Assembly (NCBI GenBank): GCA_050302075.1
Contig: JBNLAH010000003.1
Location: 4,484 to 68,483, forward strand
DNA length: 64,000 bases
Reading direction: 5' to 3'
From: Parachlamydiales bacterium
GTDB taxonomy: Bacteria; Chlamydiota; Chlamydiia; Chlamydiales; SM23-39
Part shown: positions 3,717 to 40,558 of the stretch, piece after piece
Layout of the letters: every line of letters starts with the position of its first letter
Position numbering within the stretch: position 1 is the first letter of the stretch
Notes under the pieces: model-generated
Told to the model about the DNA's origin: nothing
The model's database searches: none
The model's input: only the letters and a program-made list of their open reading frames with translations
Position numbers and translations under genes: made by a program

Positions 3717-3769
3717 CAGGGAAAAAAATCTTCTAACTATGTATAAATAAATAGTAGGAGCAATTATTT

Positions 3770-16475: not shown

Positions 16476-16792
16476 AATCCCTACTTTTAAAAAAACCATA
16501 TTAAACAAGCAAAAATATTAGACAAGATTATTTTAATATTGCTTTAAAATTTAACACCTCAAATAAAAATTTGATCACCACTAACTAATTGAAATATAAG
16601 GCTTTAATAAAAAACACTATGTAAATGCCAGGTCTACGCATTAAAAATTTTTTTTAAATTAAACTTAATTACTTGTTTTCAATATGTTAAAAATATTTTT
16701 TTATTAAAATTTATTTTATTGGTGTTTTTAATTATCAATACAGTTAAAATTATTAATTAATAATTTAATCTAAATTAAAAATATTTAAATTA

Positions 16793-18545: not shown

Positions 18546-19973
18546 ATGCAAAGCATCTTAGAAAACAAATGCTTAGGATCATTTATTGATAATAACTTTG
18601 TCTGCGACAAGAAGATAAAAGCCTTTTCCTGTAAATCTGTTGTCACAGATGAAGTATGGATGAAATTATGCCCGGTTACAGAAAATCAAATCCAAAGAGC
18701 TATCAAAAGCTCTTATAAATGCTTTAATGACCTGAAAAAATTAAGTCATTACCATCGAAGAGACCTCTTGAACAAGGTAGCTGATATTATCGATTTGAAT
18801 AAAGATATCATAGCAAGAGTTATTTCATCTGAGATGGGAAAAACATATAAAGAGTCTATTGATGAAATAAATTACGCTAATGAATATTTTAGGTGGTTTT
18901 CCTCAGAATCTATAAGCAGATCCGGGTATTGTTTACCATCCGAAAATCCCAATAAAAGAATTTCAGCAATTTATGAACCTATCGGAGTCTGTGGGATTAT
19001 CACTCCTTGGAACTTCCCGATTGCTATGGCCGCTAGAAAAATTGCACCGGCTATTGCTGCTGGGTGTACAGTTTTAGTCAAGCCGGCCAGTGAAACTCCT
19101 ATTACTATGTTGCTTGTAGCTGAAGCATTTAGAAAAGCTGGAATAGCACCAGGGGCTTTGCAAGTTTTAATTGGAGATGAAAAAGTAATTGGTGAATCTC
19201 TTTTAAACTCTAAATACATCAAAAAAATTAGCTTCACAGGCAGCTCTAAGACGGGAAAAATGTTATATCAAAGCCTTGCTAAAAACCTCAAAGTTGCAAC
19301 AATGGAACTCGGAGGAAATGCTCCTCTTATCATAACAAATGACGCAGAAATTGATACATCGGTCAATGAAACTATAAAAGCAAAGTTGAGAAACCTAGGA
19401 CAGTCATGCGTTGCGGCAAATCGAATTTTTGTTCAAAAAAATATCAAAATGTTGTTTCTAAAAAAACTAAAAGAAAAAGTCAAAAAACTACAAACTGGCA
19501 ACCCTTTTTCTAAAGATGTAGATTTAACTAACATCCTACACCCAAAATCACTTAAGAAAATGCAAAGACACATAGACGATGCTCTGAAAAAGGGTGCAAA
19601 AATCCAGCTCAAAGGAAAAACCTTAGCGCATCCCTATATTCTAGATAACTGCACGGAACGTATGGATCTTTTTTCAGAAGAAACCTTTGGCCCTCTATTT
19701 GCTATCTTCGAATTTGAAACAGACTTTGAGGCTGTTGAATATGCAAATAAAAGTGAATATGGCCTAGCTGCTTATGTATTTACAAGGGACTTAAAAAGGG
19801 CTTATCTTTTTGCAGAAAATTTACAATGCGGAATGGTTGGAATTAACGATGGAGAATTCAGCAGTCACCAACTCCCATTTGGTGGAATTAAAAACTCAGG
19901 ATTTGGAAGAGAAGGAGGTCCCTTTGGGATTTTTGAATACCTGACAGAAAAAGCTATTTCGACAAAGCTATAG
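18546..19973 (+). CDS. NAD(P)-dependent aldehyde dehydrogenase (succinate-semialdehyde dehydrogenase-like)
   Basis: 475 aa. ALDH motifs MELGGNAP, GQSCVAANRIFV (catalytic Cys), EETFGP, and FGGIKNSGFGREGG. Confidence 0.8.
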   Translation: MQSILENKCLGSFIDNNFVCDKKIKAFSCKSVVTDEVWMKLCPVTENQIQRAIKSSYKCFNDLKKLSHYHRRDLLNKVADIIDLNKDIIARVISSEMGKTYKESIDEINYANEYFRWFSSESISRSGYCLPSENPNKRISAIYEPIGVCGIITPWNFPIAMAARKIAPAIAAGCTVLVKPASETPITMLLVAEAFRKAGIAPGALQVLIGDEKVIGESLLNSKYIKKISFTGSSKTGKMLYQSLAKNLKVATMELGGNAPLIITNDAEIDTSVNETIKAKLRNLGQSCVAANRIFVQKNIKMLFLKKLKEKVKKLQTGNPFSKDVDLTNILHPKSLKKMQRHIDDALKKGAKIQLKGKTLAHPYILDNCTERMDLFSEETFGPLFAIFEFETDFEAVEYANKSEYGLAAYVFTRDLKRAYLFAENLQCGMVGINDGEFSSHQLPFGGIKNSGFGREGGPFGIFEYLTEKAISTKL

Positions 19974-21278
19974 CTTTTTTAAAACACAACTAAATCCTCC
20001 GTCATAGCCATTCTCATCCGGCAAAATTTTATTCAGCTTTCCATCTACTTGAAGAGAAAACCTTTGGCAAGCCTCTTCAATAATTTTTTCATTCTCATCT
20101 GCCAAGATACTGCAAGTTAGATACCAAATGCGCCCGTTTTCATCCATTAGATTGACAGCGTTTTTTAAGATTTCTTTTTGTAGACGACAAAGGCCATGTA
20201 AGTGGTCTTTAGTAAGCTTCCATCTAGCCTCTGCCCGCCTATTTAAAACACCGCTATTTGTGCAGGGGGCATCAACTATAACCAAATCAAAGCGTCTTTT
20301 TGGATTCAATTTTTCGGCAGGCTCACAAAAAAGACTTACGTCAAGCTGATATTTTTCTATATTTTCTTTTAGCATTTCTAGCCGAGTAGGCGAAACATCA
20401 TTCGCATAAAGCACTGCGCCTGGATATAAATCAAAGGCTGCAAGTAGCTTCCCACCGGGTGATGAGCAAAGATCAATAATAGATGTTGGGTTTTTTACCT
20501 TTAAAGATAGAAAATCAATGAGCTTAGACTGTGTTAAACTCTGAAAATAGTAGTCAGGATCATTTTTTAAAGTTTCAATTAGCTTCAGATTTTTTAGCCG
20601 ATACAACGAAAACTCTTTTTCATAGATAACATCAGCATCCTCTTTTTTGAGCTTAGTGTTGTTTACTTTATTTCTTTTTTTGACAAATATCTGAGGAGCT
20701 TTATTCATCGCTTTTAAAATATCCTCGGCTTGTTTTACATCAAACTGATGAGATAGCAACTCTACAAAATATCTTGGGTATGAATATCGAATATCAAGCT
20801 CTTTACTTTGCTTAAAAGCCTTAGGATCTAATTTCCTAAGCAGAGCATTAAAAAAAGCACCTGTTTTAAAAGATATCACCTTTTTTGCTAACGCAACGCT
20901 TTCATCAACTATTGCATAAAATGGTATTCTATCCATGAAGCACATTTGATAAAGTGAAATACGTAAAATTATTTTTTCCCTTAGCTTAAGTCTATTGATA
21001 TTCTCAATTTGTTTTGCATAGTAGTCGATTGAGAGCTTCCTTTTGACCACCCCATACGCAATTTCTTGGGCCAATTGATAATCTACATCTTTGGGAAACG
21101 ATGTTTTTTTCCATTCCTTCAAGGACTTGTCAATTTTTTTCCCAGTTTTTTCATAGTCTAAAAGCGCCGAAAAGCTCGCATGACGTGGATTAATAAATGC
21201 TTGCTTGGGCTTCGAGATCGGATATTCTCTGTTTTTGAAATTCATCTTTTTCATCAATTTTTGTAGGGTATCTTCCAT
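19968..21278 (-). CDS. rsmB: 16S rRNA (cytosine-C5) methyltransferase RsmB/Sun family
   Basis: 436 aa. N-terminal NusB-like region. SAM site DLCSSPGGK. Catalytic VDAPCTNSGV and YLTCS. The start is ambiguous (Met at 21278, 21254 or 21245), and all three overlap the 3' end of purF. Confidence 0.8.
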   Translation of the reverse strand: MEDTLQKLMKKMNFKNREYPISKPKQAFINPRHASFSALLDYEKTGKKIDKSLKEWKKTSFPKDVDYQLAQEIAYGVVKRKLSIDYYAKQIENINRLKLREKIILRISLYQMCFMDRIPFYAIVDESVALAKKVISFKTGAFFNALLRKLDPKAFKQSKELDIRYSYPRYFVELLSHQFDVKQAEDILKAMNKAPQIFVKKRNKVNNTKLKKEDADVIYEKEFSLYRLKNLKLIETLKNDPDYYFQSLTQSKLIDFLSLKVKNPTSIIDLCSSPGGKLLAAFDLYPGAVLYANDVSPTRLEMLKENIEKYQLDVSLFCEPAEKLNPKRRFDLVIVDAPCTNSGVLNRRAEARWKLTKDHLHGLCRLQKEILKNAVNLMDENGRIWYLTCSILADENEKIIEEACQRFSLQVDGKLNKILPDENGYDGGFSCVLKKL

Positions 21279-22611
21279 CTAGGCATGCAGTACATATTCC
21301 ATCTAAGTTTATTACTTTTTTTAAGTCAGAAATATCATTATATATTACTTCATCAGCCTCAATCTTTGCAGCAATATTAACATCTATTAAGTTTGCAGCA
21401 ATTAATTGCTTTGGCTCTGGGAAATCTATTCCGTAAAAACAAGGATGGGTAATTGGTGGATATGTAGATGCAAAGAAAATCTTTTTAGCCCCTGCTTTTC
21501 TCACTAAATTTACTACTTTTTTTGAAACTGTTCCTCTTACAATACTATCATCTACCAAAATAACACTTTTATTTTTAAAAACAGATTCTATGACAACCCA
21601 TTTTCGAGCTGCTAAACTCTCTCTCATAAACTGATTGGCAGCAATAAATGTCCTTCCAACGTCTGCTTGTTTAAGCAGTCCCATTTCAACTGGTATATTA
21701 AGTGCATATCCTAAAGCAAGTGCTGCAGGAGTCCCAGTATCAGGGACTGGAACCACGACATCTGCTGTAATTTTTTTCTTTAAAAAATGAGTAGCTAGAC
21801 ATTTACCTAAATTTGCCCTTGCTCGATAAATCTCATTTTTCTCAATTAAAGACACTGGACTTGCAAAATAATTAAATTCAAAGCTGCAAACAGTTTTTGA
21901 GCTATTCATTAATTTCTTTTTAGCTATGTTTTTATCTTTGTCAATGAAAATAAGTTCAGCAGGCCTCAGATCAAAAATCGTATCGCATTCATTTAAAGTA
22001 AGTGGATACGACTCCGATGAGAAACAAAATTTCCCTTTACTATTTTTTATTCCCATCAAAAGAGGCCTAAGGCCTTTTGGATCTCTAAAAGCTATCATTC
22101 CAATATCTTTGATCAATAAAACAATAGAATAAGAGCCTTGAACCTCTAAGAAAATTCTCTTTACAACTTTTGCAATCTCATCAAATGTTATTTTTTTACC
22201 CGATAAGTTATCAAAATAATGCAATAAAACTTCAGCATCACTTTTACTCTTAAATCTATGTCCCCTTAATTCAAACATCTGCTTCAAAGACAAATAGTTA
22301 ACAATATTTCCATTGTAAGCAATTGCAAACTCTTTTCTTTTTAGAGGCTGTACTTCTGACGCTTCCCCGATTCCTGATGTAGCGTATCTAACATGTGCTA
22401 TTCCCCATGTTTGCATGCTATTTGGCTTATAAAATCTTGAGAATACTTGTCTTACCAAACCCAAATCTTTATGAAGTACCTCATTTTTATGCTGCCTATC
22501 AAGAGTATATAATCCAGCCGCATCTTGACCTCTATGCTGCAAAAACCTGAGACTTTTAATTAAAGATTGAGTGACATCACAACTATCTACAATACCAAAA
22601 ATTCCACACAT
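21190..22611 (-). CDS. purF: Amidophosphoribosyltransferase
   Basis: 473 aa. N-terminal MCGIFGI (Ntn glutamine amidotransferase Cys1). PRTase loop VILVDDSIVRGT. C-terminal Cys residues consistent with a 4Fe-4S type. Confidence 0.9.
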   Translation of the reverse strand: MCGIFGIVDSCDVTQSLIKSLRFLQHRGQDAAGLYTLDRQHKNEVLHKDLGLVRQVFSRFYKPNSMQTWGIAHVRYATSGIGEASEVQPLKRKEFAIAYNGNIVNYLSLKQMFELRGHRFKSKSDAEVLLHYFDNLSGKKITFDEIAKVVKRIFLEVQGSYSIVLLIKDIGMIAFRDPKGLRPLLMGIKNSKGKFCFSSESYPLTLNECDTIFDLRPAELIFIDKDKNIAKKKLMNSSKTVCSFEFNYFASPVSLIEKNEIYRARANLGKCLATHFLKKKITADVVVPVPDTGTPAALALGYALNIPVEMGLLKQADVGRTFIAANQFMRESLAARKWVVIESVFKNKSVILVDDSIVRGTVSKKVVNLVRKAGAKKIFFASTYPPITHPCFYGIDFPEPKQLIAANLIDVNIAAKIEADEVIYNDISDLKKVINLDGICTACLDGRYPTKIDEKDEFQKQRISDLEAQASIY

Positions 22612-22620
22612 AAAGCTTAC

Positions 22621-23370
22621 TCACATTTCATATCCACTTGAAGATAAACTATTTCCATCAACATAAATTCTCCCATCAATGAGAACTACCTCTTTAGATT
22701 GTAAAAGATCAATAGCTCTAATAAGAGCTGGATGATCACTTACAAATTTTTGCCTTTCTTGATGTTTTTCAATCGAGTCGTCATTAATCGGATATTTTCC
22801 AAGATAAGTAACCCATGGGCCCGATACAAAGATTGGGCCTGTATCTACTCCTTCATCAATAAAAATAATTGATGATCTAGTTCTTTTCATTTGATCTTGC
22901 AAGGCCAGCTTTATTGCATTTGATCCCACATAAGCTCTTTTTTGGTTTACTGTATATGTTAGATCAGCTGGGTGTACATTGATAATTTTCCCCTGATAAG
23001 CTTTCAAGATTGATCCTTTAATAAGACGCATGTACCCAGCTAAGACTATATAATCTATCTGAAAAGCTTTTAGCTTTTCTAATAGTCTTTTTTCATAAAT
23101 CTCATGATAGTTATTCGGATATTTTTCTTTGATTGATTGATATGAGATGTAGATAAGTGGGATGCCTTCAGCTTGCGCAATCTTTTGGCAATTGCATTTT
23201 CTATCAGTTACAATTACTTTAATATGAATGTTTGGCTTTTCTTTTTGAGCGCAAAGTAGTGCTGTTAAATTTGAGCCGCTTTTAGATCCAAAAACAGCTA
23301 GGTTAAGTATTTTCTTTTTGTTGCCGCCTATTTTGCTAGGATGGGCAGAGTTTAAATGTTTTATTTGCAA
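22621..23370 (-). CDS. purN: Phosphoribosylglycinamide formyltransferase-like (formyl transferase family)
   Basis: 249 aa with a TTG start of uncertain position. N-terminal LAVFGSKSGSNLTALL, VLAGYMRLI, INVHPADL (variant of the HPSLLP motif), and DEGVDTGPI. Located between purD and purF. Confidence 0.65.
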   Translation of the reverse strand: MQIKHLNSAHPSKIGGNKKKILNLAVFGSKSGSNLTALLCAQKEKPNIHIKVIVTDRKCNCQKIAQAEGIPLIYISYQSIKEKYPNNYHEIYEKRLLEKLKAFQIDYIVLAGYMRLIKGSILKAYQGKIINVHPADLTYTVNQKRAYVGSNAIKLALQDQMKRTRSSIIFIDEGVDTGPIFVSGPWVTYLGKYPINDDSIEKHQERQKFVSDHPALIRAIDLLQSKEVVLIDGRIYVDGNSLSSSGYEM

Positions 23371-24616
23371 TATCTTTCCGATAGTGCGCTCCCTTAAACT
23401 TAATTTTTCTTACTTGCTTATAGGCTTTTTGTCTTGCAGCTTCTAAACTGCTATCAAAGGCACACACAGACAATACCCTCCCTCCAGCTGTCATATATGG
23501 ACTTCCATAACTTCTTTTAGTCCCAGCATGAAAAATATATGTACCCTCTATTTGATCATTCAAACCACTTATCTCAAAGCCGGTCTGGTATGTATTTGGA
23601 TATCCTCTAGAGGCCATTACCACACAACAGGCACTTCTATCATCCCAATGAATCTCTTCATCAAATCTGTTATTGATACATTTTTTCATAACTGAATATA
23701 AGTCACTTTTCAAAAGAGGTAGAACAGCTTGTGTTTCGGGATCACCAAACCGGCAGTTGAACTCTAGAACATTAATAGAATCACCTGAAATCATTAATCC
23801 AGCGTATAAAACACCAACATATTCAATATTATTTTTGATTAAGCCTTGCATAGTTCTGTCGAATACTTTTTCTTGGATCATTTGCAATGTATGTCTATCA
23901 AGAAAGGGAACAGGAGCATATGCTCCCATACCACCAGTGTTAGGTCCCTTTGCAGCTTCATAGAGTCTTTTATAGTCTTGAGCCGGGAGCATCATGTAAG
24001 CTTTCTTTCCATCGCAAAAGGCCATCACAGATACTTCCTCACCAACCAACCTTTCTTCGATTACAATTTTATTTCCAGCGCTAGAAAAGTATTTATCTTT
24101 CATAATCAGGTCAATTGCAAGATTTGCCTCGCTAATCGTGTCACAAACCATTACTCCTTTTCCAGCTGTCAACCCATCTGGTTTAATAACAACACCAAGG
24201 CCTTCTTTAAAGATTTTTAAAAGCTGCTTTTTTGCATCTTTTAAACTGCTAGAAACTATAAATTTGGAAGTTGGGATATTTTCATTCTGCATGAAATTTT
24301 TAGACCAGGCTTTGCTCGACTCAATTATTGCAGCTTTTTTTACCGGCCCGAAAAACTTTAAGTTATTTTTTTTAAAAATATCTGCTATTCCATTAGTTAA
24401 AAACTTTTCACTCGCAGCTACTGTCAAATCAACTGAGAATCTAATTGCAACGTTGCAAACTTGTTCAAAGTCATTTTCATCGACATCTTGTATCGTTTCT
24501 GCAATTTCCTGGATCCCACTGTTGCCTGGCAGACAATATACGGCATGGTCTTGCCTATAAAATGTGTGTGCTAAGGCATGTTCTCTAGCTCCGCTTCCTA
24601 ATATTAGTATTTTCAT
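23336..24616 (-). CDS. purD: Phosphoribosylamine-glycine ligase
   Basis: 426 aa. MKILILGSGAREHALA. ATP-grasp core (VIKPDGLTAGKGV, EFNCRFGDPE). C-terminal GGRVL. Confidence 0.9.
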   Translation of the reverse strand: MKILILGSGAREHALAHTFYRQDHAVYCLPGNSGIQEIAETIQDVDENDFEQVCNVAIRFSVDLTVAASEKFLTNGIADIFKKNNLKFFGPVKKAAIIESSKAWSKNFMQNENIPTSKFIVSSSLKDAKKQLLKIFKEGLGVVIKPDGLTAGKGVMVCDTISEANLAIDLIMKDKYFSSAGNKIVIEERLVGEEVSVMAFCDGKKAYMMLPAQDYKRLYEAAKGPNTGGMGAYAPVPFLDRHTLQMIQEKVFDRTMQGLIKNNIEYVGVLYAGLMISGDSINVLEFNCRFGDPETQAVLPLLKSDLYSVMKKCINNRFDEEIHWDDRSACCVVMASRGYPNTYQTGFEISGLNDQIEGTYIFHAGTKRSYGSPYMTAGGRVLSVCAFDSSLEAARQKAYKQVRKIKFKGAHYRKDIANKTFKLCPS

Positions 24617-24617
24617 C

Positions 24618-25835
24618 TTACCTCAGATTTTTCAGTTTTCTAATAGCTGACATTGCAGCACTTTTAGGATCCATTAACTGAGTAAATATGGCAGGCCAAT
24701 TGCAAAAACCCTCTATAGTTTTTAAAGAACTAAAGTTTTCTGAATGAAAAATGTAGACCACAGGTTCAATTGAATAATTATATTTGGAAATTGCGTCTTT
24801 TAGTGCTTGCCCATCAAATTTAATTTTTATAATTTTATGGGGAATCTGGTAATCATTTAAAGTCCTGCTAATAATTTCATCAGATAAATTCTCATCAATA
24901 CATACTAAAGCAAAATATCCACATATTAGCTTAGCATCGACCAACCTTTGTAAAATCCTCTTTCTTGGACTTACTGTCTCTTGTCTTAGTTTTTCTTTTG
25001 TAATTGACTGAAAGACTTTAAGATATTTTTCCCGCGCCATCTCTTTAATATCTTCAGGCAAAGTAAAGCTTTTTTGTCCTACTTTGAAACCACTTTTAAT
25101 CAAATACTGCCTGATAAACTCTTTACTTTGATGTTCGTATTTTTTTTCATCATAATCTTCTTTAAACCAAAATCTAGACGAATCTGGAGTATGAAGTTCA
25201 TCAATCAATACTAACTTATCACTTTCATCTAGCCCAAATTCATATTTAGTATCTACTAAGATCATATTGCACTTGTCTAAAACTTCTTGCCCCCTTTTAA
25301 ATAAAGCTAGTGAAGTTTTCTCGATTTTTTGAAAAATTTCTTCACTGACAATTTTTCTACTAAGGATTTCTGCTTTGGAAATATCTTCATCATGACCATC
25401 CTCAGTTTTAGTTGTCGGGGTAATTATCGGATATTCAAGCTCTTGGTTTTCTCTCAAATCCTTGGGAAGCCTTAGACCGCACTTTTCTTTTTTGCCTTCC
25501 TTGTAGTCTTTCCAAAGTGATCCTGAAACATACTTTCTAACAATTATTTCAATTGGAATTGCTCTACATTTTTTTACTACCATTACATTAGGGTCAGGAG
25601 AAAAAATCAGGTGATTTTCAATAATGTCTTTAGTTCTTTCAAACCAAAAAAGTGAGAGTTGGGTTAAGGTTTTTCCTTTATCTAAAATTGGATCACTTGA
25701 AACTACATCAAACGCAGAAACTCGATCACTTGCAATCAATATCAGCTTGTTTTGAAAAGTGTAGATATCTCTAACTTTTCCCTTTTTTCTATCACCAAGT
25801 TCAGGTATGAACGATGCTATAATTCCTTCACTCAC
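24618..25835 (-). CDS. purC: SAICAR synthetase (long type) with a C-terminal extra domain of about 115 aa (degenerate PurE-like?)
   Basis: 405 aa. N-terminal roughly 285 aa carry GKVRDIY, IASDRVSAFD and LVDTKYEFG. The C-terminal tail has a PurE-like alternation pattern but lacks the SAHR and AGGAAHLPG motifs (see findings). Confidence 0.85.
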   Translation of the reverse strand: MSEGIIASFIPELGDRKKGKVRDIYTFQNKLILIASDRVSAFDVVSSDPILDKGKTLTQLSLFWFERTKDIIENHLIFSPDPNVMVVKKCRAIPIEIIVRKYVSGSLWKDYKEGKKEKCGLRLPKDLRENQELEYPIITPTTKTEDGHDEDISKAEILSRKIVSEEIFQKIEKTSLALFKRGQEVLDKCNMILVDTKYEFGLDESDKLVLIDELHTPDSSRFWFKEDYDEKKYEHQSKEFIRQYLIKSGFKVGQKSFTLPEDIKEMAREKYLKVFQSITKEKLRQETVSPRKRILQRLVDAKLICGYFALVCIDENLSDEIISRTLNDYQIPHKIIKIKFDGQALKDAISKYNYSIEPVVYIFHSENFSSLKTIEGFCNWPAIFTQLMDPKSAAMSAIRKLKNLR

Positions 25836-25898
25836 TATAGTCTCTGTAAAATAATATTTTTAAAATATTAACCAAAACGTTTTTTAAATCCAGTTAAC

Positions 25899-27503
25899 TT
25901 AATGAGAAAAAAGCCTTTGGCCTGTAAAAATCATTCCAATTTGGCATTCATCTGCCTTTTCAATTACTTCAAAATCTTTTTTTGCCCCTCCCGGCTGCAC
26001 TATCCACTTGATATTAGCCCTATTTGCCGATTCGACACTATCGACAAATGGGAAAAAGCCATCACTTGCTAATACACATTCCCTCATATCTTTACACATT
26101 TTAGCGGCTTTTGGAATAGCTAGAAGCTCCATACTATCAATGCGATTAGGTTGCCCTGAGCCTATCCCAATCGTTTGATAACAACTATCGTTAACTTTTC
26201 TTCCTATAACAATTGCATTGGATTTAACATACTTTGTAGCAATTAAGCTGAATGCTACAAGTTCTTTTAGCTCGTTAGGAAAAACGACTTTTGTTACTAA
26301 TCCCTTCCTAAAGCCTTCCCCTCCAGCAAAAAGATCATCAATATCTTGCATACTAATTTCACTTAAAGGTGTTTGTGAAATCACTCCTCCGCTTATTTTT
26401 TTAAATAACGTTGTTTGTTTTTCAAAGTCAGAGACAATCAACCTAAGCATAGGTTTATGCTCTTTCGCCCATTTTACAAAGGAGTTTGAAAAGTCTTTGG
26501 CAATTATTACCTCAATAAATTTATTTTTTACGACTTCACATAGGTCTTCTTTAACACTTTCATTTATTGCAATCACACTACCAAATGCAGATTTGCTATC
26601 AGCCTCCCAAGCAAGCTCAAAGGCTTCTTTCACTGTTTTTGCAGTAGCAAGCCCACATAAAGATCCATGTTTAACGACTGATACGGATATTTGATCTAGC
26701 ATTTCTTTCAAGTCTATAACAGCATTCGATGCAATTGTTGCATCTTCATAATTGTTATATGACAGCTCTTTGCCTGATATCACTTCTGAATGAGCTATTC
26801 CTTTCTCATCTTTTAACTGGAAAAGCCATCCTTTCTGATCTGGATTTTCCCCATAGCGAAGCTTTTTTTGATTGTAAAAGGTAAAATAGGAAACCAGGTC
26901 TTCTCCTTGCTTAGAAGAAAACTCACTTGCTATCATAGTTTCATACTCAGCTGTTAGCTTAAAAGCTTTTGCAGCCAACATGGATCTAGTCTTTAAGGAA
27001 AGACTCCCTTTAAGGGCTTTTACTTCCTCTAACACTTTAAAATAATCAGAGACAGAAGTAAGCACAGCTACATTTTTATAGTTTTTTGCTGCAGCCCTGA
27101 TTAAGGTAGGCCCCCCGATATCAATAAATTCGATTAGTTCTTCTAAAGGTAGATTTAGATTTTTTGCACTTTTAAAATCATATAAATTACATATCACCAT
27201 ATCAAATGGCTTGATGTCTAATTTGCTTGCCTCCTTTAAATCCTTTGCTTTATCAAGCAAAATACCACCCGCAATTTTAGGGTGAAGTGTTTTGACCCTA
27301 CCTGAAAAGCACTCCTCAAATCCAGTGTAATCTGCTACTGAAGTCGGGTTAAGATTATTTTCCTTTAGGTACTTCAGAGTAGATCCAGAAGCTATTACCT
27401 TTAATGTTGGTTGAGCCGACATTAGCCCTTTAATAAATTTAGCAAGATTATTTTTATCTGTAACACTTGTCAAAATGTTGTAGATTGGGAGGTCTTCCAT
27501 CAA
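25899..27503 (-). CDS. purH: Bifunctional AICAR transformylase / IMP cyclohydrolase
   Basis: 534 aa. N-terminal MGS-like domain (LTSVTDKNNL, RVKTLHPKI, IDIGGPTLIRAAAKN). C-terminal AICARFT domain (ELSYNNYEDA, KHGSLCG, IQPGG). Confidence 0.9.
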   Translation of the reverse strand: MMEDLPIYNILTSVTDKNNLAKFIKGLMSAQPTLKVIASGSTLKYLKENNLNPTSVADYTGFEECFSGRVKTLHPKIAGGILLDKAKDLKEASKLDIKPFDMVICNLYDFKSAKNLNLPLEELIEFIDIGGPTLIRAAAKNYKNVAVLTSVSDYFKVLEEVKALKGSLSLKTRSMLAAKAFKLTAEYETMIASEFSSKQGEDLVSYFTFYNQKKLRYGENPDQKGWLFQLKDEKGIAHSEVISGKELSYNNYEDATIASNAVIDLKEMLDQISVSVVKHGSLCGLATAKTVKEAFELAWEADSKSAFGSVIAINESVKEDLCEVVKNKFIEVIIAKDFSNSFVKWAKEHKPMLRLIVSDFEKQTTLFKKISGGVISQTPLSEISMQDIDDLFAGGEGFRKGLVTKVVFPNELKELVAFSLIATKYVKSNAIVIGRKVNDSCYQTIGIGSGQPNRIDSMELLAIPKAAKMCKDMRECVLASDGFFPFVDSVESANRANIKWIVQPGGAKKDFEVIEKADECQIGMIFTGQRLFSH

Positions 27504-28272
27504 ATTTCTCCTTTAGATAATTTAGTGCATTCTTAAAAATTATTAGCCCTGGGCCATTAGCTGGAACTGGAACATTTTTTCGAATGCAATCTTCTTTTAT
27601 TTCAGTCCAGTTTGGGAGGTTCTCAAAAAATAAAGCAGCTTCAGGATGTGGCATAAGACCAAAAACTAGACCGCTGTCATCACAAACTCCTGCAATATCA
27701 AATAAAGAACCATTTGGATTTTCCTCGCTGTATTTTAAGGCTATCTTTTGATTTGCAAACATAGCTTCAATTGTTTTCTCGCTCTTTGCAAAAAAACATC
27801 CCTCACCATGTCTAATAGGAAGATATAGATTGTCTATTCCTTTTAAGAAGATGCATTTGCTGGAGCAAACTTTAAGCTTCACCCATTTGTTAATAAAATA
27901 ATTTGGGATGTTTGCTTTTAAGGTTGTGAGACCTTCTGTTGAGAAAAAACCAAGTTGAGATAGCACTTGAAACCCATTACAGATACCTAAAATGCACTTT
28001 CCTTCATCAACAAATTCTAAAAGTTTTTCTTTTAAGGAAGACTTGTACTTTAGCTTATTTGCAAAAGCTTTTCCAGCTCCAAGCTCATCACCAAATGAGA
28101 ATCCTCCAGGGAAGACAATAATATGAAATTCTTTCAAATCAATTTTCTCATCTATCAGTTCATTTAAATGAGCATACTTATAATCGACGTCTAGCAAGTT
28201 AAATGCATATGCAGTTTCTCTTTCGCAGTTAATGCCAAATCCAAAAATAATCAACGCTTTAATCGATGTCAT
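27454..28272 (-). CDS. purQ: FGAM synthase glutamine amidotransferase subunit
   Basis: 272 aa. Class I GATase: FPGGFSFGDELG, catalytic GICNGFQVL, MPHPE. The 3' end overlaps the purH start by about 50 nt. Confidence 0.85.
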   Translation of the reverse strand: MTSIKALIIFGFGINCERETAYAFNLLDVDYKYAHLNELIDEKIDLKEFHIIVFPGGFSFGDELGAGKAFANKLKYKSSLKEKLLEFVDEGKCILGICNGFQVLSQLGFFSTEGLTTLKANIPNYFINKWVKLKVCSSKCIFLKGIDNLYLPIRHGEGCFFAKSEKTIEAMFANQKIALKYSEENPNGSLFDIAGVCDDSGLVFGLMPHPEAALFFENLPNWTEIKEDCIRKNVPVPANGPGLIIFKNALNYLKEKFDGRPPNLQHFDKCYR

Positions 28273-31153
28273 TTAAAGTACCCTGCCACACTGATTTTAG
28301 TTTCTCTGTATCTTCTTGAATTATTTTTTCTCCTTGTTTGTCTTTGATGATAAATGTTCTATCTAAAGTAACCTTCCCAACCTTAAATATAGGCTGTTGT
28401 TGCATGACCTTTTCAAAAAGTTCTATATTCTCCTGACTTATGCTAAGCACAAATCTAGAACTCGATTCAGAAAATAAAAGTTCAAGTTCATTTAAGCTTG
28501 AATGAAAATCATCTAGAGAAACTTCAACTCCGAATGAGCTTGAAAAACATGCTTCAGCAAGTGCTACTATAAAGCCTCCATCAGAAATATCGTGACAAGA
28601 TGCGACATAGCCTTTCTGTATACATTCAGATAGCTTTTTATAATATATTCCAGCAACTCCAGCATCAACACTGGGAACTTTGCCTTGAGTTATCTTATTT
28701 GAAGATGCCCACTCGCTCATCATAAGCTCGTCTTTTGTGCTACCCAAAACGTATACAGCATCATCTACTTTCTTAAACTCCATTGAAATAGCCTTTCTGT
28801 AATCAGAAACCTTTCCAATAGCTGAAATTAGCAAGGTGTATGGAATTGATATTTTTTTATCTTTAAATTTATAGTCATTTTTCATGCTGTCTTTGCCAGA
28901 AATAATTGGTAGTTTATATGAGCTACAGATATCAAAAAGTGCTTGATTTGCTTTGATGAGTGCTCCTAGTTTCCTTTTTCCATCAGGAGTTTTATCAATA
29001 TCATAAATTGGATCTGGCCAGCAGAAATTATCTAGTATTGCAATACGCTCAAAATCTGCGCCAACACACAAACAGTTTCTTACTGCTTCATCAACGGCAT
29101 TTAAAGCCATTTCATAAGGAAAATCACTAAATTTAGGGCATATCCCATGTGATATTGCAATAGCTGCCTTAGAGCTAGATCTGGTTTCTAACGGCACTAA
29201 AACAGCAGCATCCGAGGGACCTGATAGGTGGGTAAAAGGTTTGATGATAGTCTGGGCCTGCACTTCATGGTCGAATCTTCTAACAATTTTTTCCTTACTA
29301 CAAACATTTAAAGAAGAAAGTACTTTTGTTAGTTCTTTCAAATAGTTTATCTCTTTTTTATAGCTAATTGGCTCGACCTTTTGATCCTCCCAAATAGCTT
29401 CCAATTCAAGCTTAGGATGCCCAAAATGTAGAAATTTAAGATTAAGTAAGGCCACTGTCTTCGCTTCATACAAAACATGAAAATAACCACTGTTTGTAAA
29501 CTTGCCAACGACAGAAATTTCTAGTTCATGAAAGTCTGCAAGCTCTTGAAGACTTTTTAAGTCTTTAGCTGCTACAGCAAGCGTCATCCTTTCTTGTGAC
29601 TCGCTGATTAAGATTTCATAGGCCTTAATGTTTTTTGCCTTCAACTTTGCTTTATCTAAGTGTATTTCACATCCATTAGACAACAAAGCCATCTCACCGA
29701 TCGAAGATGAAAAGCCTCCAGCGCCATTATCTGTAATTGCACGGTATAGCCCAAAGTCTCTGGCATTTATAATAAAATCAGATAACTTTTTTTGGGTAAA
29801 AGGATCTCCTATTTGAACAGCTCCAATTGGGCTTTTCTCATGAAACTCTTCAGATGAAAATGTAGCTCCGTGAATACCATCTTTTCCTGTCCTACCACCT
29901 GCTATGATGATTAAATCATTAGCCTCAACCATCTTCTTTTCAGTTGGCTGATTATTGATTCTCTTAGGTATGATTCCAATACTCCCACAGTATACAAGCG
30001 GCTTTCCTAAGTAATTCTCATTAAATACAATTGATCCATTAACTGTTGGGATTCCAGATTTATTTCCACCGTGCTCAATTCCCTTTACTACTCCTTCAAA
30101 TACGCGCTTAGGATGTAAAATTTTTTCAGGCAAAGGTTTTTGATAATCAGGAGGAGCAAAACAAAAAACATCGGTATTTGCAATAACACGAGCGCCTATC
30201 CCTACTCCCAAAATATCTCTATTAACTCCCAGTATCCCTGTCAGAGCGCCACCATAAGGATCTAATGCCGATGGACTGTTATGAGTTTCCACCTTAAAGG
30301 CAACATTATATTTCTCATTGAACTCAATAATACCAGCATTGTCGCTAAATACACTTACTAACCAATCAATACTTTTAGAAAGCTGAGTGGTCACGCTTTT
30401 AATATATGTTGAAAATAACGAATCAATAATCTTGGCTTCACCATTTTCAATAAAAGTTATTGAAGCGTTGAATATCTTATGTTTACAGTGCTCACTCCAG
30501 GTCTGGGCGATAGCCTCCAGTTCAACGTCAGTTGGAAAAGCTTTAAGACCTAGTACCTTGCGCTTTTCTTGAACATCTTCAGATTCATAATATTTTCTGA
30601 TTGTTTGCATTTCATTTAAGTTAAGAACTAAATGTCTTTTTGCGCTTAACTCCTCAAGCTCAGCATCGCTTATATCAAGTGAGATATAGTTAAAAATATC
30701 TGTATCTTTTTTAGAGATCTCAAAAATCTCTATTACTTCATTTGCTATAAATTCCTTAACTATTTTCTCAACTAGTTTGAAACTGAGCTGTCCTTTAATA
30801 AGATAAATAGTAGAAGTGCTTAAAAATTCTTTTTCAGAAAACCTTTCGTTTAGGAAATCTTCAATTGCAATTTTAGCAGTGTTAGCTAAATTGTCATTTA
30901 CCCCAGGTAGGTATTTTACGCTGACTTTCCAGTCATAGTCTTGCTCGTCCAAAGTATTTAAGCTTTCATTGAATTGATCTGACAAGACTTCTTCTTTGAT
31001 TATTTTTTTTTGCTTTTCTGTCAGCTCTTTATAGATGTGAAATCCATCAAATATAGAAATATCATGTAAAAGATGAGTACAGTATTTATTAATATTCTTA
31101 ATAACTACAGATGAATAAGCCCTATCCTTTGACACGTAAATGTTTTGCATCAA
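28259..31153 (-). CDS. purL: FGAM synthase subunit PurL with N-terminal PurS-like extension
   Basis: 964 aa. WSEHCKHKIF, VETHNSPSALDPYGGA, and the duplicated AIR-synthase-related fold. About 200 aa lie N-terminal to the SEHCKHK motif (see findings). Confidence 0.9.
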   Translation of the reverse strand: MMQNIYVSKDRAYSSVVIKNINKYCTHLLHDISIFDGFHIYKELTEKQKKIIKEEVLSDQFNESLNTLDEQDYDWKVSVKYLPGVNDNLANTAKIAIEDFLNERFSEKEFLSTSTIYLIKGQLSFKLVEKIVKEFIANEVIEIFEISKKDTDIFNYISLDISDAELEELSAKRHLVLNLNEMQTIRKYYESEDVQEKRKVLGLKAFPTDVELEAIAQTWSEHCKHKIFNASITFIENGEAKIIDSLFSTYIKSVTTQLSKSIDWLVSVFSDNAGIIEFNEKYNVAFKVETHNSPSALDPYGGALTGILGVNRDILGVGIGARVIANTDVFCFAPPDYQKPLPEKILHPKRVFEGVVKGIEHGGNKSGIPTVNGSIVFNENYLGKPLVYCGSIGIIPKRINNQPTEKKMVEANDLIIIAGGRTGKDGIHGATFSSEEFHEKSPIGAVQIGDPFTQKKLSDFIINARDFGLYRAITDNGAGGFSSSIGEMALLSNGCEIHLDKAKLKAKNIKAYEILISESQERMTLAVAAKDLKSLQELADFHELEISVVGKFTNSGYFHVLYEAKTVALLNLKFLHFGHPKLELEAIWEDQKVEPISYKKEINYLKELTKVLSSLNVCSKEKIVRRFDHEVQAQTIIKPFTHLSGPSDAAVLVPLETRSSSKAAIAISHGICPKFSDFPYEMALNAVDEAVRNCLCVGADFERIAILDNFCWPDPIYDIDKTPDGKRKLGALIKANQALFDICSSYKLPIISGKDSMKNDYKFKDKKISIPYTLLISAIGKVSDYRKAISMEFKKVDDAVYVLGSTKDELMMSEWASSNKITQGKVPSVDAGVAGIYYKKLSECIQKGYVASCHDISDGGFIVALAEACFSSSFGVEVSLDDFHSSLNELELLFSESSSRFVLSISQENIELFEKVMQQQPIFKVGKVTLDRTFIIKDKQGEKIIQEDTEKLKSVWQGTLNDID

Positions 31154-31158
31154 TATCC

Positions 31159-32103
31159 CTATTTCGAAAAAACATTTCCTATTTTTATGTATTTAAGACA
31201 GCTATCAAATTGCATAGTCTCAAAAACACTTTCCGATACAATAAATGTGTAACCAATACCCATGTTAAATGTCTGATACATCACAGTATCACTAACTCCA
31301 CCCTTAACTTGGATCCACCTAAATATCTTCGGAATGTCCCAGCTATAATTTAGATCTACAAAAAAACCATCTGGCAAGGTTCTTTGAATATTATCAACCA
31401 AACCGCCTCCAGTAATATGAGCCATTGATTTAACACTGTACTTAGTTAAAGTTCTCTCTACATCGCTTACATAAATTCTAGTAGGATGTAATAGACATTG
31501 CCCTAAACTATCACCACCTAAAGGCTCATCTAATGACCTTTGGTTGTCGTAAATAATCTTTCTAATTAAAGAAAATCCATTGCTGTGAACTCCATTTGAT
31601 GTAAGCCCTACAACTACATCTTTACTTTCAATATTTTTCCCATTTATAACTGAATCATTTTGGACAATTCCAACACTAAAACCTGCTAAGTCATACTCTT
31701 TTTCCTTATAAAGTCCAGGCATTTCAGCTGTCTCTCCTCCTAAAAGAGTACACTTTGCCATTTCACACCCTTTTTCAATCCCTTTAAGAACTTCTTTAGC
31801 AACATCTATGTCAAGCTTGCCACAAGCAAAATAATCTAAAAAAAATAAAGGGGTAGCCCCCGTTGTGATAATATCATTGACACACATTGCAACTAGATCA
31901 ATTCCTACCGTTGAATGCTCGTTTAACTCAAATGCAAGTTTCAACTTTGTACCAACTCCATCGGTTGCAGCTACCAAAGATTGATTCTTATTAATAGGAT
32001 ATAGGCCAGAAAAGCCTCCTATATGGGGAAATTTTTTTTGTAAGAAGGAAACAAATTCATTTCCTAAATTAACGTCTACACCCGCCTCTTTATATGATGG
32101 CAT
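31159..32103 (-). CDS. purM: Phosphoribosylformylglycinamidine cyclo-ligase (AIR synthetase)
   Basis: 314 aa. SYKEAGVDV, ATDGVGTKL, NDIITTGATPLFFLDY, GGETAEMPG. First gene of the pur operon. Confidence 0.9.
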   Translation of the reverse strand: MPSYKEAGVDVNLGNEFVSFLQKKFPHIGGFSGLYPINKNQSLVAATDGVGTKLKLAFELNEHSTVGIDLVAMCVNDIITTGATPLFFLDYFACGKLDIDVAKEVLKGIEKGCEMAKCTLLGGETAEMPGLYKEKEYDLAGFSVGIVQNDSVINGKNIESKDVVVGLTSNGVHSNGFSLIRKIIYDNQRSLDEPLGGDSLGQCLLHPTRIYVSDVERTLTKYSVKSMAHITGGGLVDNIQRTLPDGFFVDLNYSWDIPKIFRWIQVKGGVSDTVMYQTFNMGIGYTFIVSESVFETMQFDSCLKYIKIGNVFSK

Positions 32104-32218: not shown

Positions 32219-32247
32219 GAAAAAGAGCGCAGTAAAACCTGCGCTCT
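32219..32247 (-). terminator. Rho-independent terminator after the Cys-rich lipoprotein gene
   Basis: Minus strand AGAGCGCAG-GTTTTA-CTGCGCTCT followed by TTTTT, 13 nt after the stop at 32260. Confidence 0.7.
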
Positions 32248-32259
32248 TAATTAAAAGAA

Positions 32260-32814
32260 TTATTTTTCGTTAAATCTTCTTGGATCTCGACGGTTTTGTT
32301 CACTTAACTCTGTATCTCTTCCAAAAAGTTCGTTTCTAGTATACTGTCTGCCGTTTGGTCCACAAGAACTGCAACAGCTATCACATGGATCGCAGCAATC
32401 AGGTTCACAGCAATCTCCACAACCGCAATCTCCACAACCGCAATCCCCACAGCCGCAATCATCACATCCACAATCATCACATGGGTCACAGCAGTCAGTA
32501 CATTCTTTTTTCTTTGGCTGCATTGGAGCATAGATTCCTGTTGGCTGATTTGTCTCCTCACACCTTGGGTTGCACCATTCACAGTCAGATTTTGGGCAAC
32601 AGTCTTTTGGGCAACATTCGTCATCATTGTACCTTTTTCTCATAGGCATCTTAGTATCACTATCTTTCATCATTGGCTGAGACTCTCTCATTTGAGATCC
32701 TCTCATTGATTGTCTTTGACTGCTTTTGCCATCTTTGGTTGGCTGGCATGCCATAGTTAAAAAGCTCATCGCAAAAACTGCGCAGAAGAGCTTTATAAAT
32801 AACTTTTTCTTCAT
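32260..32814 (-). CDS. Extremely cysteine-rich putative lipoprotein with (CGCGD)n repeats
   Basis: 184 aa. Signal peptide ending LTMAC (lipobox-like). A Met/Arg/Gln-rich spacer. Then about 27 Cys in about 90 residues (my manual count), including DCGCDDCGCGDCGCGDCGCGDCCEPDCC. Has its own terminator. Confidence 0.6.
   Translation of the reverse strand: MKKKLFIKLFCAVFAMSFLTMACQPTKDGKSSQRQSMRGSQMRESQPMMKDSDTKMPMRKRYNDDECCPKDCCPKSDCEWCNPRCEETNQPTGIYAPMQPKKKECTDCCDPCDDCGCDDCGCGDCGCGDCGCGDCCEPDCCDPCDSCCSSCGPNGRQYTRNELFGRDTELSEQNRRDPRRFNEK
32410..32484 (-). repeat. 15-bp in-frame tandem repeat (about 5 units, the first two identical)
   Basis: Plus-strand units: gcaatctccacaacc x2, then gcaatccccacagcc, gcaatcatcacatcc, acaatcatcacatgg. 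They encode the CGCGD/CGCDD repeat. Confidence 0.85.
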
Positions 32815-33889: not shown

Positions 33890-35215
33890 ATGAAAGCAAG
33901 TGCAATACTATTAATGGCTGGAAGCGGTAGTAGATTTAAGAAATCTTATCCCAAGCAATTTTATAAACTGCTTGGTACTCCAGTCTACATCCATACTTTA
34001 AAACAATTCATAAAATCAGCCATTTTTCAAGAAATTATTCTATGCTGTCATTCTGATTACATTGATGAAGTAAAAAAAGAAACAGAGCAATATCAAAATG
34101 TAAAAGTAGTATCTGGAGGGAAAACTAGACAGCAGTCGAGTTTTAATGCAATAAATGCCTGCAGTGATGACTGTGAAATAGTCTTAATACACGATGCAGT
34201 AAGACCATTTGTTAGCACAAAAATAATAAGAGATAACCTTACCCTAGCACAAAAATACAAAGCTGTTAACACCTGCATTGAAAGTACTGATACTTTAGTA
34301 AAAACCAGTGATAAAATAAAAATTGATAGCTTCCCTGACCGTAAGAGCCTTATGCGAGGACAAACCCCACAAACGTTCGAATATTCTTTAATAAAAAAGG
34401 CTCACTTAAATGCAATTAAAAAGAACATAACAAATGCAACTGATGATTGTCAGTTAGTCTTTATGCTCCCTCACCCTGTTTACATCTGTAAAGGTGAAGA
34501 GAAAAATATAAAAATCACAACCCCTTTTGATATTAATATCGCAAAACAGATCCTTCAAGAAGCAGAAATATCTTTAGAGCCTTCAGATAAATCATTTGAA
34601 GGAAAAAAATATATCTTGATTGGGGCTAGTGGAGGTATTGGGAAACACATACATAATCTTATTGAACAAAACGAAGGGTTTGTTATTCCTGTATCTTTAA
34701 AGAACTCAAAATACAAGATGGATCTAACAAAGAAAGAAAGCATTAAAAGTGTTTTAGAAATGATCCATAGCAAATACGGCCCTGTAGATGGGTTAATTAA
34801 CTCTGCAGGTCTTTTACATAAGTCGCCGCTTTCTGTTTTAACAGATTCAGAAATTGACAATCTAATTAATATTAACCTTACAGGTGTCATATATTGTTGT
34901 AAGTTTACAAAAATAAAGCGACATGGACACATCATTAACGTTTCATCTTCTTCTTACGTAAAAGGAAGAAAGAATCATAGCATTTATTCAAGCTCAAAAG
35001 CTGCACTAGTTAATTTCACTCAAGCATTAGCGGAAGAAAGAGAAGATTTATATATCAATTCTGTAGTTCCCCAAAGAACCAATACCAATATGAGAAGATC
35101 CCATTTCTATGATGAAGATCCTAATGAACTATTATCGCCTGATACCGTAGCTTTGGAAATTATCAATATATTAAAAAATGAACAAAGCGCAAAAGTATTC
35201 GAGCTATTCATATAA
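33890..35215 (+). CDS. Bifunctional IspD/TarI-like cytidylyltransferase + short-chain dehydrogenase (CDP-ribitol synthase-like, Bcs1/TarIJ architecture)
   Basis: 441 aa. N-terminal domain: ILLMAGSGSRF, GGKTRQQS, IHDAVRPF, RGQTPQTF. C-terminal domain: ILIGASGGIGK (TGxxxGxG-like) and YSSSKAAL (YxxxK). Confidence 0.7.
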   Translation: MKASAILLMAGSGSRFKKSYPKQFYKLLGTPVYIHTLKQFIKSAIFQEIILCCHSDYIDEVKKETEQYQNVKVVSGGKTRQQSSFNAINACSDDCEIVLIHDAVRPFVSTKIIRDNLTLAQKYKAVNTCIESTDTLVKTSDKIKIDSFPDRKSLMRGQTPQTFEYSLIKKAHLNAIKKNITNATDDCQLVFMLPHPVYICKGEEKNIKITTPFDINIAKQILQEAEISLEPSDKSFEGKKYILIGASGGIGKHIHNLIEQNEGFVIPVSLKNSKYKMDLTKKESIKSVLEMIHSKYGPVDGLINSAGLLHKSPLSVLTDSEIDNLININLTGVIYCCKFTKIKRHGHIINVSSSSYVKGRKNHSIYSSSKAALVNFTQALAEEREDLYINSVVPQRTNTNMRRSHFYDEDPNELLSPDTVALEIINILKNEQSAKVFELFI

Positions 35216-39036: not shown

Positions 39037-39130
39037 CTTTTGTAACCTTATTTCTTAAATTTTACGCTTGGTTTAAGTTACTTAATATAAAGTAAAAATT
39101 TCAATAAATTATTTCCTTTAAACAAACTCC

Positions 39131-40542: not shown

Positions 40543-40558
40543 TATGCTTAAAGTTACG

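Follow-up and report, generated by a model that had tools for sequence, protein, structure and literature searches.

Chlamydiae are textbook nucleotide parasites. The pur operon of the Bacillus subtilis type has the gene order purEKBCSQLFMNHD. In animals, PAICS (PDB 2H31, 4JA0) is a bifunctional SAICAR synthetase/class II AIR carboxylase, and class II PurE, which is octameric and has a five-stranded flavodoxin-like fold, works without PurK. Here, we present an analysis of a purine operon in a 64-kb stretch of chlamydial DNA (the window). Based on sequence comparisons, we consider it probable that the operon belongs to a deep-branching uncultured chlamydia, was inherited vertically and supports de novo IMP synthesis, that the PurE domain of its PurC protein is a dead relic, and that the missing steps would come from unlinked genes. 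Our literature searches returned no description of this operon, of bacterial PurC-PurE fusions or of the genome assembly.

A first-pass annotation of the window described eight tightly coupled pur genes, and this description stands. On the minus strand, between positions 21190 and 32103, eight full-length ORFs that match named families in NCBIfam and Pfam and keep their catalytic motifs follow each other head to tail in the order purM, purL, purQ, purH, purC, purD, purN and purF. As previously noted, neighboring genes are either separated (by 5, 63, 1 and 9 nt) or overlap (by 14, 50 and 35 nt). The motifs quoted at that time are also in place, i.e., MCGIFGI at residue 1 of PurF, where it contains the Cys nucleophile, SEHCKHK at residue 220 of PurL, and the nucleophile motif GICNGFQ at residue 96 of PurQ, which also keeps the MPHPE motif. 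The first gene, purM (31159-32103), encodes the AIR synthetase of step 5 (TIGR00878, E 8e-113, 377 bits with a cut-off of 236) and is 55-60% identical to purM of the chlamydial loci L003, L004 and L002. purQ (27454-28272) encodes the glutaminase subunit of FGAM synthase (GATase_5 PF13507, E 1e-61; TIGR01737, E 4e-50), purH (25899-27503) the AICAR formyltransferase/IMP cyclohydrolase of steps 9-10 (NF002049, 491 bits with a cut-off of 402; MGS and AICARFT_IMPCHas domains), and purD (23336-24616) the GAR synthetase of step 2 (TIGR00877, 472 bits with a cut-off of 288; dN/dS 0.07). purN (22621-23370) encodes a divergent chlamydial subtype of the GAR formyltransferase of step 3, which matches TIGR00639 with an E of 2e-28 and 99 bits, i.e., below the cut-off of 150, and also matches PF00551; its residues N131, H133 and D176 align with N106, H108 and D144 of the E. 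coli enzyme and are invariant in 7/7 sequences. The last pur gene, purF (21190-22611), encodes the amidophosphoribosyltransferase of step 1 (TIGR01134, 350.1 bits with a cut-off of 350).

The FGAM synthase subunit of step 4, PurL (28259-31153; 964 aa; TIGR01736, 545 bits with a cut-off of 526), contains an FGAR-AT_linker domain (residues 166-226), AIRS and AIRS_C twice, and an N-terminal extension of ~165 aa (30659-31153) that the first-pass annotation missed. This extension gives no Pfam match of its own; the corresponding region of the L003, L004 and L002 orthologues, of which L003 PurL is 57% identical overall to that of the window, matches PurS (PF02700) twice each, with E values of 2e-8 to 4e-10 and above the gathering score. 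By orthology, the window PurL probably carries PurS fused to its N-terminus. A carboxylase hidden as an extra domain in one of the other Pur proteins was also considered; none was found, the PurL extension being PurS-like. Based on family HMMs and catalytic residues, the enzymes for steps 1-5 are all present, with PurS recognized directly only in the orthologues. PurF, PurD, PurN, PurL with its PurS-like N-terminus, PurQ and PurM would together take PRPP to AIR, the PurC domain would turn CAIR into SAICAR, and PurH would turn AICAR into IMP.

Upstream of purM, a 10-bp GC-rich hairpin followed by a T-run at 32220-32248 on the minus strand (AAGAGCGCAG-GTTTTA-CTGCGCTCTT and then TTT, as read from the sequence) agrees with the terminator assigned earlier to the preceding gene. 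This intrinsic terminator-like element is predicted to end the upstream gene for a Cys-rich lipoprotein and to mark the 5' boundary of the operon; the element is absent from the list made by a consensus scan. The promoter proposed upstream of purM did not hold up, as promoter-like sites occur at chance level (43 versus 46 expected). Using Rfam, neither a purine riboswitch upstream of the operon nor any other riboswitch or Rfam element upstream of or within the operon was found. The 184-aa product of the upstream ORF (32260-32814) is PurE-sized and was tested as PurE but rejected; it has a signal peptide, is Cys-rich and lipoprotein-like with CGDCG repeats, and matches no family. At the other end, a 436-aa ORF on the minus strand (19968-21278), which is about the size of PurB and was tested as purB, is rsmB for the 16S rRNA m5C967 methyltransferase (NF011494, E 3e-68). 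This gene, which had been overlooked, overlaps the 3' end of purF and is also adjacent to purF in L003; it is probably co-transcribed with the pur genes and may be a ninth cistron. Beyond the window lie carA-carB on one side and secA, psd, nth, mnmE, ruvA and ruvC on the other; no pur genes were detected in the ~10 kb beyond the window start and the ~16 kb beyond its end.

The first-pass annotation also stated that the operon lacks purE and purK and that, lacking purB as well, the pathway has two holes. By tblastn, we found none of the three genes in the window or in the DNA beyond its two ends, and none in 324 kb of related chlamydial loci, so that neither a functional AIR carboxylase nor purB is visible. 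However, purE is not simply absent. The purC ORF (24618-25835, minus strand) encodes 405 aa, and its C-terminal ~109 aa, which were previously missed, are derived from PurE. The N-terminal part, from residue 1 to ~296 (24948-25835), is the SAICAR synthetase of step 7 (PF01259, E 2e-71; NF010568, 265 bits with a cut-off of 251; residues 9-298 match PurC models), has 45 positions that are invariant across 55 homologues, and shows a dN/dS of 0.10 relative to an 85%-identical relative. Its AlphaFold model has a pLDDT of 93, and the solved structures that it matches are those of PurC (E 3e-26). The remainder, from residue ~297 to 405 and including the stop codon (24618-24947), can be aligned colinearly to the class II PurE domain found in 37 canonical fusions; in an hhalign comparison, the clade's domain matches the canonical domain with a probability of 98.9% (E 1e-17). 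In the window domain, GSExD has become DENLS, SAHK has become IKF-- and AGRSNALSG has become SENFSSLKT, and a further ~25 residues are gone from the CPPFKD..LQMPS segment; in isolation, it matches no Pfam family, including PF00731, and no PDB sequence. Because all the catalytic motifs are lost, the window PurC is a descendant of a PAICS-like enzyme rather than a functional member. [quoted passage not shown]

The relic is under purifying selection (dN/dS 0.22, significantly <1; p = 4e-6), and the full-length AlphaFold model, which matches PurE (4zk2) only at E 0.05, confidently predicts for it a compact alpha/beta fold, with four strands rather than five. The selection and the compact fold could suggest that the truncated domain retains AIR carboxylase activity through a remodeled active site. 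We regard this as highly improbable because the active-site elements, namely the catalytic His of SAHK, the phosphate loop GSxxD and the loop AGRSN, have disappeared together with ~25 residues and because the whole domain is deleted in other lineages. Moreover, the domain-only model (pLDDT 69.5) matches just generic CheY-like, flavodoxin-like or Rossmann 2x2 folds at E 4e-3 or worse. Rather, we suggest that the domain persists in the window lineage as a small four-stranded alpha/beta module whose most likely role would be structural, i.e., in PurC oligomerization or as a stabilizing appendage.

The comparison with related loci places this decay in a wider context. The order purM-L-Q-H-C-D-(N)-F is present in at least eight other chlamydial loci at protein identities of 45-57%; it is conserved in L002, L003, L004, L005, L093-096, L098 and L099. 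Most relatives have a PurC that continues in the same chain into a class II PurE domain (PF01259 plus PF00731; 433-443 aa). This PurE domain is closer to those of PAICS (4ja0, 2h31) and to the class II PurE of Treponema (3rg8) than to class I PurE; because the fused domain is class II, PurK is unnecessary. In this operon family, AIR carboxylation would be carried out, as in animal PAICS, by the class II PurE domain at the PurC C-terminus; this would account for an operon with neither purK nor a separate purE. Several relatives have a degenerate form, either by point loss of the PurE motifs (P0047, P0013, P0044 and P0043) or by deletion of the whole domain (P0052 and P0048), and these forms are placed beside canonical ones with bootstrap values of 82-100%. 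In chlamydiae, the PurE domain has decayed or been deleted on at least five independent occasions, each time in an operon that is otherwise intact. In the lineages with a degenerate PurE domain, the evolution of the PurC domain is not accelerated, and a search within 10 kb of each related locus found no replacement gene.

With a catalytically dead AIR carboxylase domain, the pathway could simply be broken, the loss of PurE being the first lesion of an operon on its way to pseudogenization in a bacterium that takes up host nucleotides through Ntt transporters. Chlamydiae generally import nucleotides, and Ntt1 and Ntt2 are part of the chlamydial core genome (PMC8242063). However, none of the eight ORFs is disrupted, dN/dS ranges from 0.07 to 0.10 at a dS of ~0.6-0.8, and no rate acceleration is evident. 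Moreover, the degenerate state is common to the window and L003 (~53% identity), which keeps 8/8 genes intact. All this makes ongoing pseudogenization improbable.

If, as we think probable, the operon works, AIR carboxylation must come from elsewhere since the catalytic PurE domain has decayed, and the same applies to the PurB step. To our knowledge, no alternative to PurE is known for the AIR carboxylase step. We propose that AIR would be converted to CAIR by an unlinked standalone PurE, with or without PurK, and SAICAR to AICAR by an unlinked PurB encoded elsewhere in the genome. Because our searches covered the window, its extensions and the related loci, this supply in trans is purely what we infer. 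In the case of purB, the gene is absent from every related chlamydial operon locus examined; its absence here is therefore the norm and not evidence of a genomic hole. purB has a second role in AMP synthesis and frequently lies apart from pur operons (PMC3261824). In the case of purE, no standalone PurE attributable to Chlamydiota was among the 120 best matches to a profile of the chlamydial PurE domain; the named ones among these 120 are all from candidate-phyla-radiation bacteria, whose standalone proteins of 149-151 aa dominate the matches and are ~60-65% identical to the canonical chlamydial domain. We also notice, against supply in trans, that each of the at least five independent lineages with decay or deletion requires a back-up, and that none was seen in the loci searched.

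Alternatively, CAIR could be made without PurE, by an unrecognized non-homologous enzyme, by host PAICS/ADSL, which might also perform the PurB step, or non-enzymatically at high CO2. CAIR from another source would render the fused PurE domain dispensable and free to decay repeatedly, and the recurrent and well-separated losses, which range from point loss of motifs to complete deletion, the undiminished constraint on the PurC domain thereafter, and the lack of a replacement gene nearby all fit with this idea. However, no candidate enzyme was found, model organisms become purine auxotrophs when purE is mutated, and we know of no documented transport that would carry phosphorylated intermediates across the inclusion and bacterial membranes. 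Because only a small part of each genome is covered, an ordinary standalone purE is the simpler explanation, and we consider a PurE-free source of CAIR possible but unlikely. The broader version, in which several independent chlamydial lineages, including that of the window, synthesize purines with no PurE by means of an unrecognized AIR carboxylase or of host-shared CAIR and possibly SAICAR-lyase steps, the PurE domain being a pseudoenzyme or deleted, seems to us doubtful.

The chlamydial nature of the genome, as described in the first-pass annotation, is supported by a cluster with the gene order sctJ, an unassigned ORF, sctL, sctR, sctS and sctT, which we take to be the order in Chlamydia, by a 1099-aa PBP2 for which 7/8 of the named top matches are chlamydial and 1/8 is labeled Verrucomicrobiota, and by PurC relatives named Chlamydiota, Waddliaceae or Rhabdochlamydiaceae. 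The nearest named relative is Chlamydiae bacterium CG10_big_fil_rev_8_21_14_0_10_35_9. In a profile search of genome contigs with the PurC alignment, the matches listed were mostly from Bacteroidota and included one chlamydial locus. In having this operon, the genome remains unlike the classical Chlamydiaceae, in line with the earlier description; however, the suggestion that the operon is unusual for its lineage, which was to fall if close relatives all had it, is not supported, since the same operon is found in the nearest relatives.

The first-pass annotation further raised the possibility of horizontal acquisition. Dharamshi et al. 2023 (PMC9816063) inferred that the last common ancestor of the chlamydiae had lost purC, purD and purH, so that a later gain must have taken place in some part of the phylum, and the nearest standalone PurE relatives are those of the candidate-phyla-radiation bacteria described above. 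However, the comparison of the 21-32 kb region with its flanks, which had been suggested as a check, gave equal compositions (GC/GC3 of 0.346/0.260 for the operon and 0.347/0.259 for the flanking genes), the chlamydia-specific gene order is common to deep divergences, and the purF-rsmB junction is common to the window and L003, for which the Pur proteins are 47-57% and the housekeeping protein RsmB 50% identical. Similarity of PurC also ranks the nearest relatives as PBP2 does. These observations argue that any transfer was ancient, and a recent transfer into the window genome is very hard to reconcile with them.

A conserved and selected de novo IMP operon, near carAB-pyrBI for pyrimidines, suggests that some environmental chlamydiae keep substantial nucleotide autonomy. 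Their AIR carboxylase lies in a PAICS-like fusion in which the catalytic domain was inactivated or deleted on at least five separate occasions while the other genes remained normally constrained; such chlamydial genomes either commonly contain a redundant standalone purE or obtain CAIR from something new. Because canonical fusions hide purE in "purC" and degenerate ones resemble plain purC, tools that assess pathway completeness would be expected to mis-score these genomes.

Compared with animal PAICS, the window PurC has its domains in the same order, with PurC at the N-terminus and a PurE-type domain at the C-terminus. The class II motifs SAHK and AGRSN are present in the canonical chlamydial relatives, whose best match is the PurE domain of PAICS, and the full-length window model aligns to PAICS over 432-445 columns. 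By contrast, the window C-terminal domain is without all the catalytic motifs and is ~25 residues shorter, the predicted domain orientation differs (rmsd ~21 Å), and the PurC domain is nearer to the yeast and mycobacterial type (32% identity) than to PAICS (16-17%). The relic descends from the class II PurE family (EC 4.1.1.21), which includes the Treponema denticola protein (3RG8) and the "AIR carboxylase family protein" of candidate-phyla-radiation bacteria, but it fails every motif test and is not recognized by PF00731. Like the Bacillus subtilis-type operon, the window operon is a single tightly coupled unit that covers most steps from PRPP to IMP, with PurL and PurQ split; however, it has the chlamydia-specific order M-L-Q-H-C-D-N-F, PurS is probably fused to PurL, purK and purB are lacking, and PurE is a fused class II domain that is degenerate here. 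Finally, as in the large PurL of Salmonella and E. coli (lgPurL; PDB 1T3T), with which it aligns over lgPurL residues 204-954, the window PurL has a PurS-like N-terminus, an FGAR-AT linker and an FGAM synthetase domain in one chain, whereas its glutaminase is the separate protein PurQ. With the glutaminase separate and the PurS-like part fused, the architecture of the window PurL lies between those of the small and large PurL systems.

The notable feature of the pur operon is a relic carboxylase domain in PurC, rather than the absence of purE and purK. The first-pass annotation had described the lack of both genes as a hole in the pathway. For purE, this is not a simple absence: a PurE-derived domain is present in PurC, with its catalytic motifs gone. 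The purC ORF encodes 405 aa, and the match to SAICAR synthetase stops near residue 298. The remainder (24618-24947; residues ~297-405) is colinear with the canonical PurE domain of homologous proteins (hhalign probability 98.9%, E 1e-17), has lost ~25 residues by deletion, and reads DENLS, IKF--, and SENFSSLKT where the motifs used to be. Searched alone, it has no match in Pfam or the PDB. In the AlphaFold model of full-length PurC (pLDDT 93), the C-terminus forms a four-stranded alpha/beta module, and PAICS aligns to both domains, with a different domain orientation; a model of the relic domain only (pLDDT 69.5) shows no resemblance beyond generic folds of the flavodoxin-like or CheY-like kind. 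In a comparison with an 85%-identical relative (locus L087), the PurC domain, the relic, and PurD have dN/dS values of 0.10, 0.22, and 0.07, respectively, and the contrast between nonsynonymous and synonymous changes in the relic is significant (p = 4e-6). Based on these sequence comparisons, the carboxylase domain appears to be a selected, noncatalytic relic of a PAICS-like fusion.

Homologues of this PurC in Chlamydiota are mostly 433-443 aa long and combine PF01259 with PF00731. The C-terminal motifs GSExD, SAHK, AGRSNALSG, and CPPFKD...LQMPS are present in 37 of the 55 aligned homologues. The canonical PurE domain matches the PAICS of Bombyx mori (silkworm) and human (4ja0, 2h31) and the class II PurE of Treponema (3rg8) with E values of 1e-23 to 1e-31, while the matches to class I PurE reach only about 1e-7 to 1e-9. 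We conclude that the canonical chlamydial proteins are PAICS-like fusions of PurC and class II PurE. Because class II PurE carboxylates AIR directly with CO2 (PMC3261824), PurK is unnecessary. Similar fusions occur beyond Chlamydiota in Peribacteria/Peregrinibacteria (L064, 10001-14029; L034, 8168-9999) and Opitutales (L008, 1862-3145); the former two loci belong to the candidate phyla radiation, their PurE domains share 53-59% identity with that of chlamydiae, and a purB of E. coli type adjoins the fused gene in both. In a 2.29-Mb chlamydial contig with a canonical fusion (L002), the operon is without purN, the purM call covers just 241 aa (3765-4490), and guaB is broken into a 163-aa and a 355-aa ORF (2131-3686); the short purM and broken guaB reflect either frameshifts or assembly errors.

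The C-terminal domain is degenerate in the remaining 18 of the 55 fused homologues. In the mildest cases (P0047, P0013, P0044, and P0043), the domain is full length and the catalytic residues alone are replaced; others have partial deletions, and in P0052 (271 aa) and P0048 (301 aa) the domain is wholly missing. A bootstrapped neighbor-joining tree of the PurC domain places degenerate forms beside canonical ones (P0047 with P0046, 100%; P0007 with P0008, 82%; P0013 and P0044 within the P0032/39/42 group, 96-99%; P0043, 83%), and the clade that includes the PurC studied here (P0001, P0002, P0003, and P0121) has 96% support. These placements imply at least five independent events of decay or deletion, and the relic is one case of a pattern that recurs in the phylum. 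At every locus examined, the remaining pur genes are intact. Moreover, the PurC domain is not more diverged in degenerate lineages than in their canonical sisters, arguing that SAICAR synthetase is under normal constraint after PurE loss, which in turn would imply a continuing supply of CAIR. We notice that one lineage with a degenerate PurE domain encodes a beta-class carbonic anhydrase (PF00484; L005, 20405-21043; L006, 16208-16846) ~4 kb downstream of its purC-D-N-F-guaA cluster; it may bear on how CO2/bicarbonate is provided for AIR carboxylation, or be a coincidence.

As for the missing steps, we suggest that purE and purB genes unlinked to the operon would supply them, which we regard with some confidence as the most likely resolution. 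Among the best 120 matches in a search with a profile of the chlamydial PurE domain, there are standalone class II PurE proteins of 149-151 aa with about 60-65% identity. Those named by organism are all from candidate-phyla-radiation bacteria and are, among the matches listed, those closest to the chlamydial domain. None of the 120 is attributable to Chlamydiota; most are without an organism name, and the list misses fused chlamydial proteins that lie behind the profile itself (e.g., P0008), and so is not a complete ranking. A scan of a genome collection with the PurC alignment returned mostly Bacteroidota among the matches listed. The interesting alternative, which we consider rather unlikely, is that CAIR is supplied independently of PurE. 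For purB, the annotated absence from the operon is correct, and it is no evidence of a hole in the genome. No purB was found in the window, ~10 kb beyond its start, ~16 kb beyond its end, or 324 kb of chlamydial loci. Because every instance of the operon lacks purB, which is also needed for AMP synthesis (PMC3261824), not finding it here reveals nothing about the genome as a whole. PurS is not missing: ~165 N-terminal aa of PurL stand ahead of the FGAR-AT linker, and since this region has two Pfam PurS matches in each of three chlamydial orthologues, PurS is fused to PurL.

NCBIfam and Pfam identified the eight consecutive minus-strand ORFs (21190-32103) as purM, purL, purQ, purH, purC, purD, purN, and purF, as first annotated. 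The junctions are tight (gaps of +5, +63, +1, and +9 nt; overlaps of 14, 50, and 35 nt), and all catalytic motifs quoted earlier were found. PurN scores below the NCBIfam cut-off; aligned with its E. coli counterpart and with five orthologues from chlamydiae, it keeps the catalytic Asn-His-Asp triad. Upstream of purM, a strong hairpin with a T-run behind it (32220-32248) supports the proposed terminator of the preceding gene. Promoter-like matches occur at chance frequency only. No riboswitch was found at the operon. The next ORF downstream, which overlaps the end of purF, was considered as purB and is rsmB. The gene with the clean terminator (32260-32814, minus strand) encodes an extremely Cys-rich protein of 184 aa with a signal peptide, a lipobox-like LTMAC, and tandem CGDCG/CDDCG repeats; it has no family match and is like a small chlamydial cysteine-rich envelope lipoprotein.

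The window is chlamydial DNA. It contains sctJ-L-R-S-T secretion genes, a suf operon, a 1099-aa PBP2, and three Legionella_OMP-type porin paralogues, and an identical PurC is encoded on JBNLDT010000008.1 (GCA_050304555.1) as well as on a 271-kb contig from a different assembly. The closest PBP2 relatives are 82%, 66%, and 50% identical, the last from Chlamydiae bacterium CG10_big_fil_rev_8_21_14_0_10_35_9, and all others ≤44%; by PBP2, the organism belongs to a deep, uncultured lineage. The three tandem paralogues (37804-41869, minus strand; 410, 421, and 436 aa; PF05150, the family of the major outer-membrane protein of Legionella) probably serve as this lineage's porins. The window also encodes a full-length DNA photolyase (41939-43336, minus strand; PF00875 and PF03441), which, in a bacterium of the obligate intracellular type, is a hint that an environmental stage or the host is exposed to light. 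With pyrB and pyrI (1270-2648, plus strand), and carA and carB just upstream of the window start (L090, 549-4849), the initial steps of the de novo pyrimidine pathway are encoded too, including the regulatory chain PyrI; a family-9 glycosyltransferase gene lies between carB and pyrB. A 441-aa fusion of an IspD-type cytidylyltransferase and a short-chain dehydrogenase (33890-35215, plus strand) has the same architecture as bifunctional CDP-ribitol synthases (TarI/TarJ or Bcs1-like), and its proximity to rmlBCD rhamnose genes (14069-16508) and Wza/Wzz polysaccharide-export genes (55724-59613) suggests a surface polysaccharide.

The first-pass annotation regarded the operon as unusual for the lineage or horizontally acquired. 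A recent import is not borne out by composition, as GC and GC3 are 0.346 and 0.260 in the pur genes versus 0.347 and 0.259 in 16 other window genes. Nor, by the criterion that the annotation itself set, is the operon unusual, since the order purM-purL-purQ-purH-purC-purD-(purN)-purF recurs in chlamydial loci (L002, L003/L007, L004, L093-095, L098, and L099), often flanked by guaB and guaA, while L005/006 and L096 have the purC-D-N-F-guaA half; the difference from Chlamydiaceae still stands. Compared with L003, identity is 47-57% for the Pur proteins and, similarly, 50% for the adjoining housekeeping protein RsmB, and the ranking of relatives by PurC (85%, followed by the CG10/Bin_153 pair at 53%) is the one that PBP2 gives. 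Dharamshi et al. [quoted passage not shown] Altogether, the operon is real, functional-looking, conserved, and long resident in the chlamydial genome rather than imported. Clusters around the same PurC type in Chloroflexota and Thermaceae have a gene order unlike the chlamydial one.
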